Translations under genes and position numbers: made by a program
From: Candidatus Omnitrophota bacterium
Lineage (GTDB): Bacteria > Omnitrophota > Gorgyraeia > Gygaellales > Profunditerraquicolaceae
Reading direction: 5' to 3'
Assembly (NCBI GenBank): GCA_041662125.1
Contig: JBAZTA010000001.1
Location: 259,118-323,117 of the forward strand
DNA length: 64,000 nt
The notes under the pieces: model-generated
The model's input: the letters and a program-made list of their open reading frames with translations, nothing else
Told to the model about the DNA's origin: nothing
Database searches by the model: none
Shown: positions 58,160 to 61,100 of the stretch, in pieces
Layout: every line of letters begins with the position of its first letter
How positions within the stretch are numbered: position 1 is the stretch's first letter

Positions 58160-61100
58160 TAAAGGTCAAGCCGATTGGCTGATTAGTACGCGTTAGCTTA
58201 AATCCTTACGGACCTTACACACCGCGCCTATCAAGGTCGTAGTCTACAACCTGCCTTCATGGCCTTGCGACCAAGGGATATCTAATCTTGAGGTGGGCTT
58301 GGCACTTAGATGCTTTCAGCGCTTATCCCTTATGAACATAGCTACCCAGCCTTTGCCCTTGGCAGAACAACTGGAACACCAGTGGTTCACTTCTCCAGGT
58401 CCTCTCGTACTGTGGAGAACTCCCCTTCAAATATCCTTACGCCCACATCAGATAGAGACCGAACTGTCTCACGACGTTCTAAACCCAGCTCGCGTACCCT
58501 TTTAACCGGCGAACAGCCGGACCCTTGGGACCTTATGCAGCCCCAGGATAGGATGAGCCGACATCGCAATATGCTCCACGCTCTCGCGTGGTATTAGACT
58601 ATATCTTCACCCGCCGCTGTTTCAATGGCGGGGTTGGCGTGTGATAGTTATTGATGTCATTCAACTATCTCATCCTTCACATTGTAACACCTTCTGTGTC
58701 GGAATCAGTCGTTACGGGGTCTGATTAATCGCTGGCTTCTCTCGGAGACAAAAGTTTATAACACGGCACCTATACTACAACATAAACCAATACATAATGT
58801 ATATTCAGAGTTTACGTAATATATATACCAATTAAAACTATTATGTCACCAAGAGAAAAGACCACACGATAACTGCTTATTTTTGTCAGACTTCCCACGG
58901 TATTGCCCTTATTCGTCGGGTTCCACCGTTATTAGCCAATACATGTCCGGAATTACTTCCGGACCACCCCTGTATGTCGAGGTGCCAAACTGGACTGTCG
59001 ATGTGAACTCTCGAGTCCAATAAGCCTGTTATCCCCAGAGTACCTATTATCCGTTGAGCGATGGCAATTCCACATTAAACCATCGGATCATTAGCCCCTA
59101 CTTTCGTACCTGCGCGTCCTGTCGGATTTGCAGTCAAGCTGGCATGTGCGCTTACACTCCACAGGCGATTGCCGACCGCCTTGAGCCAACCTTTGGGCCC
59201 CTTCGTTACATTTTAGAAGGGAACCGCCCCAGTCAAACTGCCCACCTACCACTGTCCCTCTCGTCGATTCAGACAACGAGGTTAGAATTTTAGCACAATA
59301 AGGGTGGTATTTCACATTGCGGCTCATCCCGACCTAGCGGCCAGGACTCAAAGCCTCCCACCTATGCTACACATATTGAACCAAAATGCAATAATAGGCT
59401 ACAGTAAAGGTTCTGGGGTCTTTTCGTCTTGATGCGGGTAGACGGCATCTTCACCGCCACTACAATTTCGCCGAGTCTCTCGTTGAGACAGCGCCCAGAT
59501 TGTTACACCATTCGTGCGCGTGGGAACTTGCCCCACAAGGAATTTCGCTACCTTAGGACCGTTATAGTTACGGCCGCCGTTTACTGGGGCTTCGGTTCAA
59601 TGCTTCGCAAAGATTACTCTCCGCTGACAAATCCCCTTAACCTTCCAGCACTGGGCAGGTGTCACACCCTATACTTCCTCTTGCGAGTTTGCAGAGTGCT
59701 GTGTTTTTACTAAACAGTCACCCGGGCCACTTTATTGTAACCTTTGATCTTTCAATCAAAGGCACCGCTTCTTGCGAACTTACGCGGCTAATGAGCCGAG
59801 TTCCTTAACGAGAGTTATCTCGAGCGCCTTACCATATTCTGGCAGTCTACCTGTGTCGGGTTGTGGTACGTGTAAATTATCAACTTCCCTTTGTGCTTTT
59901 CTTGGCAGTATAGCATTACATCACTTCCCCCTCGGAATCCTCAGGGTCCCCTCTCTACCTTGCGATAGAAAGAACGCAGACATCCAACACTGCGCAGCTA
60001 TAGGCTTGCTGCGTCACACAAAGAGTATAACGCCAATAACTTAGTATCCGAATATTAACGGATTATCCATCGTCTACGCCATTTGGCCTCAACTTAGGCA
60101 CGACTAACCCTGGGTGGATTAACCTTCCCCAGGAAACCTTAGACTTGCGGCGCACCTGTTTCTCGCAGGTGTTTTCGCTACTTATACCGACATAATCCCT
60201 TGTTCAGTGTCCACTCATCCTCACGGTTGAGATTCATCCAACTGAACAATGCTCCCCTACCGCTTGCGCCACCGAAGTGGCACAAACCCTCACCTTCGGT
60301 AATAGGCTTGAGCCCCGATCATCTTTGGCGCAAATTCGCTCGGCCAGTGAGCTGTTACGCACTCTTTAAATGATGGCTGCCTCTGAGCCAACATCCTGGC
60401 TGTCTAAGCGAACTCACATCCTTTACCACTTAGCCTATTCTTAGGGACCTTAGATGGAGGTCTGGGCTGATTCCCTTTTGACGCCGGAGCTTGGCCCCCA
60501 GCGTCTTACTCCTAGGATAGTCATCATAGTATTCGAAGTTTGGTTGGACCCAGCAAGTCGGTAGACTCCCGCGGTCCATTCAGTACTCTACCCCTATGAT
60601 GTAGTGTCCTAAGGCGAACCCTAGAATTGTTTCGGGGAGAACCAGCAATTTCTGAGTTTGATTAGTCTTTCGCTCCGATCCACAGCTCATCCCGCAGTTT
60701 TTCAACACTGATGGGTTCGCACGTCCACCTCGATTTCTCGAGGCTTCCCGCTGGCCATGGATAGATCACTCAGCTTCGGGTCTATTCCTGCAAGCTATTC
60801 GCCCAGTTAGGACTTGGTTTCCCTACGCCTCCGCAAATTGCTTTCACAATTTACTTAAACTCGCTTACAAGAATAACTCGTCGGTCCATTATGCAAAAGG
60901 TACGCAGTCAGGCATTCTATTCGCTTGCGCAAATAGCATAGCCCTCCTACCGCTTGTATGTCTATGATTTTAGGTTCTATTTCACTCCCCTCCCGGGGTT
61001 CTTTTCAACTTTCCCTCACGGTACTTGTGCGCTATCGGTTTAGGTGTAGTATTTAGCCTTAGACCGTGGTCGGCCCAGATTCCCACAGGATTTCCCGTGT

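Follow-up and report, generated by a model that had tools for sequence, protein, structure and literature searches.

A 64-kb stretch of DNA from a Candidatus Omnitrophota bacterium (contig JBAZTA010000001.1; the whole stretch is called the window below) carries a 23S rRNA gene that is split by an insert of 413 nucleotides (nt). We are confident that this insert is a group I intron without an open reading frame (ORF), of subgroup IA and most likely IA3, located after U2500 of 23S rRNA in an Omnitrophota-related host. The anatomy of the intron, its membership of a family, the covariation of its helices and the optional nature of the insert are established in the present analysis. Since the site lies in the loop of the peptidyl transferase centre (PTC), removal of the intron is very probably needed for ribosome function.

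A single insert after U2500

The window contains a complete rRNA operon on the minus strand, which Rfam models and ARAGORN resolve in the order 16S-tRNA-Ile-tRNA-Ala-23S-5S. Its 23S gene holds one large insert: the Rfam match is 3364 nt long, or 2951 nt minus the insert, against 2925 model positions. Read on the minus strand, the gene runs ...GUUUGGCACCU (5' exon) / CGACAUACAGGGGUGG ... GAGCAUAUUG (insert) / CGAUGUCGGCUCAUCC... (3' exon). The T of GGCACCT is position 2500 in Escherichia coli K-12 (rrlB, 2904 nt), and the insertion point is between U2500 and C2501 in that numbering. An earlier annotation of this DNA (hereafter the original prediction) had described an insert of 413 nt that splits a conserved 23S stretch at the equivalent of L2500. 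Both the extent of the insert, 58567-58979, and the site prove to be exact. Position 2500/2501 belongs to the central loop of domain V, the PTC, a place not expected to tolerate an insert of 413 nt.

U58980 closes the 5' exon, and the last base of the insert is G58567. Because CGA starts both the insert and the 3' exon, the sequence by itself leaves a 3-nt ambiguity at the boundary and hence four registers. Only one of them combines a U-ending exon with a G-ending intron, and the same register was picked by both covariance models described below. The terminal bases and the cga ambiguity had been recognized in the original prediction; the ends and the two models now settle the register. In silico removal of 58567-58979 gives GGCACCU-CGAUGUCGGCUCAUCC, which is E. 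coli 2494-2515 except for the final base shown. The same junction is found in 22 intron-less relatives.

Anatomy of the intron

We could assign P1, P2, P3, P4, P5, P6, P7, P7.1, P7.2, P8, P9.0, P9 and P10 in the insert, with standard pairs throughout (Table 1). P1 is 6 bp long, made by exon CACCU plus the first intron base against GGGGUG. The P7 5' strand and the P7 3' strand, which belongs to the S element, form the guanosine-binding helix. The S-element motif that the original prediction had pointed out is indeed present, as AAGAUAUAGUCU at 58596-58607 on the minus strand. P9.0 is a helix of 4 bp that directly precedes the terminal G58567. P10 registers differ slightly among relatives.

Table 1. 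Positions in the window of the intron, its structural elements and the genes of the surrounding rRNA operon
Feature	Position	Strand	Source or remark
Whole group I intron, 413 nt, after U2500 of 23S rRNA	58567-58979	-	Non-aligning to 23S model
P1 5' strand, last 5 nt of 5' exon, CACCU; U58980 takes part in the U•G wobble at the splice site	58980-58984	-	
P10 guide ACAU, pairs with 3' exon +3 to +6, AUGU (58561-58564)	58974-58977	-	Direct pairing; inferred helix
Internal guide sequence GGGGUG, P1 3' strand; G58969•U58980, G58970-C58979 (first intron base)	58965-58970	-	
P2, 8-bp hairpin, GUAA (GNRA) tetraloop	58945-58964	-	
P3 5' strand, UUGGC	58935-58939	-	
P4-P5 domain: P4 6 bp, internal loop of J4/5 GAA and J5/4 CAA, P5 3 bp, 9-nt loop	58897-58929	-	
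P6 and P6a 5' strand, GGG-AA-GUCUGA (3 + 6 bp)	58886-58896	-	
P6 loop extension, 161 nt, A+T-rich (32% G+C), one long imperfect hairpin	58725-58885	-	
P6a and P6 3' strand, UCAGAC-CCC	58716-58724	-	
J6/7 (GUAAC) and P7 5' strand (GACUG), GUAACGACUG, classical R element	58706-58715	-	
P7.1, hairpin, outer and inner stems with internal loop	58672-58705	-	
P7.2, 7-bp hairpin	58643-58669	-	
P3 3' strand, GCCAA, closes the P3/P7 pseudoknot	58634-58638	-	
P8, 6-bp hairpin	58610-58632	-	
J8/7 and P7 3' strand, UGAAGAUAUAGUCU (= UGAAGAUA-UAGUC), classical S element	58596-58609	-	Matches Rfam consensus
P9, 6-bp hairpin, GAGA (GNRA) tetraloop	58576-58591	-	
P9.0 3' strand, UAUU (pairs with AAUA, 58592-58595), then ωG 58567	58567-58571	-	
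23S rRNA, host gene	58162-61525	-	Rfam LSU_rRNA_bacteria, 2571.8 bits (full-length, normal)
16S rRNA	62183-63775	-	Rfam
5S rRNA	57954-58070	-	Rfam
Spacer tRNAs Ile(GAT) and Ala(TGC)	Between 16S and 23S	-	ARAGORN (Rfam: two tRNAs)

Family-specific models and covariation

The generic group I model of Rfam, RF00028 (Intron_gpI), returned no intron match in the whole window at its gathering threshold, and family-specific models were therefore built. RF00028 does pass on a 272-nt L2500 intron of another Omnitrophota genome (L003; 57.1 bits). This insert has core sequence in common with that of the window, and its Rfam alignment served as a structural guide. Two covariance models, one for each of the 5' and 3' modules, were trained on relatives only; the window and its closest relative, the Candidatus Omnitrophota metagenome-assembled genome (MAG) L079, were excluded. 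R2 comprises exon-P1-P2-P3 5' strand-P4-P5 and was trained on seven short introns. R1 comprises J6/7-P7-P7.1-P7.2-P3'-P8-P7'-P9.0-P9-exon. MAFFT proved inconsistent on P7.1/P7.2 between sub-types, and R1 was consequently retrained on nine structurally homogeneous relatives.

Each model has one match in the 64-kb window, both on the minus strand. R2 matches 58890-58989 (89.1 bits, E 3.8e-22) and R1 matches 58562-58715 (65 bits, E 3.9e-17); the bit scores are large, and the E-values are rough because calibration was shortened. Structure-aware alignments of the window with 99 related loci contained 141 introns for the 3' module and 147 for the 5' module. In the 3' module 93.0% of cells were paired, compared with 63.4% after shuffling and 36-43% with partners slid; 28 of 33 pairs had two-sided changes, and covariation was 0.654 observed and 0.172 shuffled. 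The corresponding values for the 5' module were 93.3%, 69.0% and 32-47%, with two-sided changes at 23/26 and covariation of 0.474 observed and 0.123 shuffled.

The signal can be broken down by helix. Two-sided change was seen in all modelled pairs of P2 (7/7), P7.1 (4/4) and P8 (8/8) across the family. The same holds for P7.2 (7/7 pairs, 97% of cells paired) and P9 (6/6 pairs, 99% paired). P4 and P5 are 99% and 98% paired across the family, with compensatory changes, and P9.0 covaries as well. The first four pairs of P7 are virtually invariant across the 141 introns, as expected of the guanosine-binding helix. In P1 the U•G wobble is retained in 118 of 147 introns, and the remaining pairs covary with each intron's own exon, introns at other rRNA sites included.

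The long-range helices P3 and P6 were tested by joining both modules for each intron. The strands of P3 covary: one pair is C-G in 58 introns and U-A in 52, and other positions show swaps too. Of 130 introns, 115 have P6 together with P6a fully paired. The distal P6a (5 bp) is fully paired in 88 of the 130, and its 114 different strand combinations mean that it, too, covaries. GNRA loops close L9 in 95% and L2 in 60% of the family, and the window has a GNRA loop at both places. When RNAalifold was applied to a plain MAFFT alignment of seven relatives, it returned the same nested helices, and 31 of the 72 pairs showed compensatory changes. The P3-P7 core fold expected in the original prediction is thus in place: all helices form, they covary, and the models find them with E-values of about 1e-17 to 1e-22.

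A conserved core and a drifting periphery

L079 is the closest relative among the matches listed by the pattern scan described below; its intron is ~80% identical to that of the window over the full length. This identity is unevenly spread. It reaches 96.8-100% in the ribozyme core and 88-91% in P7.1 and P7.2, but falls to 68.8% inside the P6 hairpin. The substitutions in the core are structure-neutral: a G-C pair becomes G•U in P2, GAGA becomes GAAA in L9, and the others are loop changes. Purifying selection on a working ribozyme would be expected to leave just such a conserved core beside a drifted hairpin, and at the level of sequence the contrast argues for such a ribozyme.

The internal loop of P7.1 in L079 also carries a 28-nt insertion with a small GGCC...GGCC hairpin, which is missing from the window copy (58672-58705). 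We take this as a further sign of a fast-changing periphery around a fixed core.

The two operons (57900-64000 of the window against 200-6600 of L079) match unequally. Their 23S exons are 97-98% identical, with a uniform 96-100% along the gene. The 16S genes are 91% identical, with 82-87% in variable regions, and the 5S region is ~85% identical. This mismatch between 23S and 16S is unusual; lineages may have exchanged their 23S, or one of the two genomes may contain a chimeric rRNA assembly.

Related introns and empty sites

Species-representative genomes were scanned with a pattern consisting of the AGATATAGTC motif, a gap of 12-42 nt and the 3' exon CGATGTCGGCTC. At least 120 of these genomes, from many phyla, have L2500 inserts. 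The hosts among the matches listed include many members of the Candidate Phyla Radiation (CPR)/Patescibacteria, Omnitrophota, Gammaproteobacteria, a Coxiella endosymbiont, Acidobacteriota, Actinomycetes/Thermoleophilia and Planctomycetes, as well as Chloroflexi, Verrucomicrobiia, Bdellovibrionales and one Nitrososphaerota archaeon. Insert lengths among the matches listed fall into two groups, of ~230-550 nt and ~800-920 nt. The original prediction had called such introns rare in bacterial rRNA genes. That statement holds for cultured bacteria (PMC1995217, PMC3984707) and fails for uncultured ones, given the 120 or more genomes found here and the CPR (PMC11270868).

Does the lineage of the window also include 23S genes with an empty site? 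We scanned metagenomes with 26 nt of lineage-specific 5' exon, up to the splice site, and obtained 31 contigs. Twenty-two of them are intron-less and read GGCACCT/CGATGTCGGCTCATCCTATCC, the exact product of precise excision from the window. The comparison of related 23S genes that the original prediction had proposed hence yields both states of the site. Three contigs (L125, L144 and L146) carry a 448-nt version of the window intron, and the L146 intron is identical to that of L079 and lies on a contig of equal length. In a further contig, L122, the L2500 intron is 769 nt long and its P6 holds a LAGLIDADG gene. The exons flanking the 448-nt introns are at least 98.7% identical to the window, except for the 3' side of L144 (97.7%, 44 nt aligned). 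Flanks of the intron-less contigs are mostly ~91-94% identical (280-300 nt aligned), with L124 at 86.6% and several short partial alignments higher. From these identities we conclude that the intron is an optional element that marks a sub-lineage.

A single 23S lineage therefore contains the empty site, an endonuclease-bearing intron and an ORF-less intron. Published accounts of the homing cycle (PMC1995217, PMC4059233) describe these three states as its stages. The history is most likely one of invasion by homing, loss (or absence) of the endonuclease, and vertical inheritance as a near-neutral passenger that must splice. We favor this history because sister lineages are without the intron and others of the wider lineage have a LAGLIDADG version at P6.

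The scans brought up two further features of these sites. In four metagenome contigs of the same 23S lineage (L142, L143, L150 and L122), another insertion site follows CGATGTCGGCT (U2511, K-12 numbering), 11 nt downstream of the first; in L122 the stretch concerned starts 769 nt past the 5' splice site. The L2511 insert combines group I core motifs with a LAGLIDADG_2 gene (E 1.7e-43), and L122 holds both L2500 and L2511 introns with an 11-nt exon between them.

The second feature is a terminal A, not G, in 37 of 107 L2500 inserts among the matches listed (for example L049, L077, L032, L011, L013, L042, L034, L012 and L073). Boundaries of the A-ending inserts are unambiguous, P1 and P10 fit, P7 is unchanged in the same alignment, and the A comes after a P9.0 of 2 bp. 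By its title, a published report provides a precedent, a Coxiella 23S intron 'lacking the canonical omegaG'.

The P6 loop extension

Long relatives have an open frame of ~190-230 codons between the P6 strands, which encodes a LAGLIDADG_2 homing endonuclease (PF03161, E 3.6e-35). A LAGLIDADG gene is present at the P6 loop in about half of the family, and about half is ORF-less. The size of the segment between the two modules is continuous: 54 introns have at most 60 nt there, 23 have 61-300 nt and 53 exceed 300 nt. In the window the segment measures 174 nt, and the part beyond P6a accounts for 161 nt of these (58725-58885). Among the ORFs of the window, none longer than 46 amino acids overlaps the insert. 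LAGLIDADG_2 similarity was likewise absent from the insert in tblastn and profile searches, which did find the positive control, a 532-nt relative (L039, E 2.7e-32). The statement in the original prediction that the insert has no homing endonuclease ORF was therefore correct.

The extension folds into a stable hairpin. Stem and loop at 58719-58891 have a minimum free energy of -53.9 kcal/mol, compared with -32.8 ± 3.6 for shuffles (z = -5.8). The P6 extension of L079 has the same fold, with 4 two-sided compensatory changes.

Perhaps the extension is a decayed endonuclease gene? Protein-level matches were confined to the ribozyme core overlapped by open frames, and there was no DNA-level match to the endonuclease region of L122; we rejected this origin. 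We likewise rejected a repeated mobile element, as the window has no second copy of the hairpin. The extension may be a remnant, a later insertion or a functional arm. A bolder idea is that the hairpin is a functional peripheral domain (a folding scaffold, a protein-binding arm or a stable released RNA) and that the intron acts as a checkpoint of PTC assembly. Support for it consists of the stability of the hairpin and its retention in the four known copies, and we consider it improbable. Few ribosome biogenesis factors are reported for the Omnitrophota (PMC12641178).

A different gene occupies the P6 loop in L133, a metagenome contig of 1147 nt. Its 5' half is an intron that has the same guide sequence as the window, with the P6 loop occupied by a 23S_rRNA_IVP gene (PF05635, E 2.3e-23). 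Its 3' end is joined straight to the exon near 2593, and exon ~2501-2593 is missing. The contig looks like an assembly or recombination chimera of L2500 and L2593 introns.

Subgroup and comparison with known introns

Group I introns at L2500 are known in organelles, and probably in CPR bacteria too. Two archaeal large subunit (LSU)/2500 introns, IA3.2 and IA3.3, were detected with an IA3 model by Nawrocki, Jones & Eddy (2018, PMC6125680), who note that group I introns had been observed at the position before. IA3 is for this reason the expected class. The presence of P7.1/P7.2 between P7 and the P3 3' strand is the hallmark of subgroup IA. We assign the window intron to this subgroup, and P7.1/P7.2 and the literature (PMC6125680) make it most likely an IA3 intron. 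Like the archaeal IA3 introns, it sits after U2500, has the same ribozyme class and P7.1/P7.2 between P7 and P3', and shares AAGAUAUAGUC in J8/7-P7. Unlike the archaeal pair (~800 nt), it is 413 nt long and ORF-less, has a 161-nt P6 hairpin and resides in a bacterial host of the Omnitrophota lineage.

The 23S genes of CPR bacteria are rich in group I introns around the PTC, both LAGLIDADG-bearing and ORF-less (Tsurumaki et al. 2024, PMC11270868). These introns resemble that of the window: most of the loci listed by the pattern scan come from CPR genomes, CPR loci align to R1 and R2, and the same mix of LAGLIDADG and short ORF-less forms is seen, with highly similar non-ORF parts. The window host, in contrast, is non-CPR (its placement in the Omnitrophota draws on 91% 16S identity to one MAG of that phylum), and its single 23S intron differs from the several found in many CPR genes. 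Indeed, R1 and R2 each match 2-5 places in single 23S genes of many CPR loci (e.g., L041, L038, L069, L074 and L067). We interpret these matches as several introns of the same class at different sites, in agreement with the published CPR picture.

Classic bacterial 23S introns occupy L1917, L1931 and L1951 (Thermotoga, Coxiella and Simkania) and, in thermophilic cyanobacteria, L1917, L1931 and L2593 (Haugen et al. 2007, PMC1995217). They share with the window intron the group I type, a location in domain IV/V of 23S and an association with LAGLIDADG. In the cyanobacterial L2593 intron, too, P5 and P2 are short and there is an extension made of P7.1/P7.2; the phage Twort intron also shares the P7.1/P7.2 feature (PMC1995217). 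The classic introns differ in site, and those tabulated in PMC1995217 all have an endonuclease ORF, whereas the window intron has none. Moreover, those at L1917 and L1931 are IC1-like and the window intron is IA. Likeness to the general RF00028 family is seen in P1, P2, J8/7-P7 and P9, where the consensus aligns to the insert. Our literature search found no paper on an L2500 intron in Omnitrophota and none listing non-CPR bacterial examples.

Proposed splicing and alternative explanations

From established knowledge of group I introns, we propose that the transcript would fold into a canonical two-domain ribozyme. Pairing of the GGGGUG guide with the exon end CACCU would form P1, whose U•G wobble marks the splice site. 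An external guanosine held in P7 would attack the phosphodiester bond after U2500. P9.0 would then bring ωG (58567) to the same site, and P10 would align the 3' exon. Attack of the U2500 3'-OH after ωG would ligate U2500 to C2501, release the intron and restore the PTC loop. The spliced product would read ...GGCACCU joined to CGAUGUCGG....

Several points weigh against a self-splicing IA3 intron. RF00028 gives the insert 27.8 bits, short of its threshold of 50 (E 3.6e-5 in a 511-nt search), in a partial alignment that covers only P1/P2 and J8/7-P7-P9; the Rfam check suggested in the original prediction thus came out negative. We attribute the shortfall to the inability of the model to span the 161-nt P6 extension and P7.1/P7.2. 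The IA3 label derives from P7.1/P7.2 and the literature, not from an IA3-specific model. The covariation counts lean towards structure, the alignments being fitted to the models; the slid-partner controls and the MAFFT-only fold agree with them. The splicing chemistry, and splicing itself, are deduced from group I knowledge and not from RNA. Finally, P5 is minimal (3 bp), and P10 has just 4 bp and is offset by 2 nt from the splice site. Efficient splicing might therefore need protein help.

Might the intron then be unable to self-splice in the cell and need a host protein, or a maturase from elsewhere such as the LAGLIDADG protein of another intron? Besides the short P5 and P10, this possibility draws on the lack of an ORF in the intron itself, on the maturase-like activity of the LAGLIDADG protein of a Thermotoga 23S intron (PMC3984707) and on the LAGLIDADG genes in rRNA introns of related genomes of the same lineage. 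The core, however, is complete, with P9.0, GNRA loops on P2 and P9, and stabilizing P7.1/P7.2. There is no LAGLIDADG gene in the insert and no other intron-size insert in this 23S gene, and about half of the family does without an ORF. We regard protein dependence as unlikely, though worth bearing in mind. We give considerably less credence to a decayed or inactive intron that is not removed, either in a pseudogene operon or as an insert kept in the rRNA as with Simkania L1931. An unspliced 23S group I intron at a different site is attributed to Simkania (Everett et al. 1999, as cited in PMC11270868), the Rfam score is below threshold, and splicing of the window intron is a deduction. A decayed intron would nonetheless not be expected to keep a core as conserved as the rRNA exons (97-100% against L079) next to a hairpin at 69%, with core changes that are structure-neutral, which is the signature of selection. 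The 23S gene scores as normal and full-length, and 2500/2501 lies in the domain V central loop, where an insert of this size is not expected to be tolerated.

Two explanations dispense with an intron altogether. The insert might be a non-intron intervening sequence (IVS) that is excised by RNase III, so that the 23S rRNA ends up in fragments. Such sequences are frequent in bacterial 23S genes (PMC11270868), and the P6 extension does form a long hairpin. Yet the short non-intron inserts at RNase III-cleaved IVS sites are at 23IS2 and 23IS4, and group I introns take 23IS6-14, towards the 3' end of 23S around the PTC (PMC11270868). The insert also has a group I core that is complete and covaries, and U•G and ωG mark its exact ends; an RNase III substrate would have no reason to show these features, and this reading is highly improbable. 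Almost negligible, in our view, is an assembly artefact produced by a chimeric join in conserved rRNA. rRNA operons are prone to chimeric assembly, the related L133 looks chimeric, and the 23S exons are oddly closer to L079 than the 16S is. Against this, the same type of insert occurs at the same nucleotide in independent assemblies (L079/L146, L125 and L144) and in diverged form in over 100 other genomes, and its ends obey group I rules exactly. We conclude that an ORF-less group I intron of subgroup IA best accounts for the insert.

A neighbouring riboswitch

Elsewhere in the window, Rfam RF01051 identifies a cyclic di-GMP (c-di-GMP)-I riboswitch aptamer at 55866-55952 on the minus strand (81 bits, threshold 35). 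It is located ~50 nt upstream of a 183-codon minus-strand ORF (55268-55819) and ~2 kb downstream of the 5S gene.

Significance

The window intron is an ordinary new example of a known intron type at a known site, and it leaves current understanding of group I introns unchanged. For the source genome, the 23S gene should be annotated as intron-split, which affects the length of the rRNA and primer and probe sites near position 2500. The Omnitrophota lineage adds a non-CPR phylum to the hosts of rRNA group I introns. The window and its related loci indicate that L2500 introns are widespread among uncultured bacteria of many phyla, and one 23S lineage among them displays three stages of the homing cycle.

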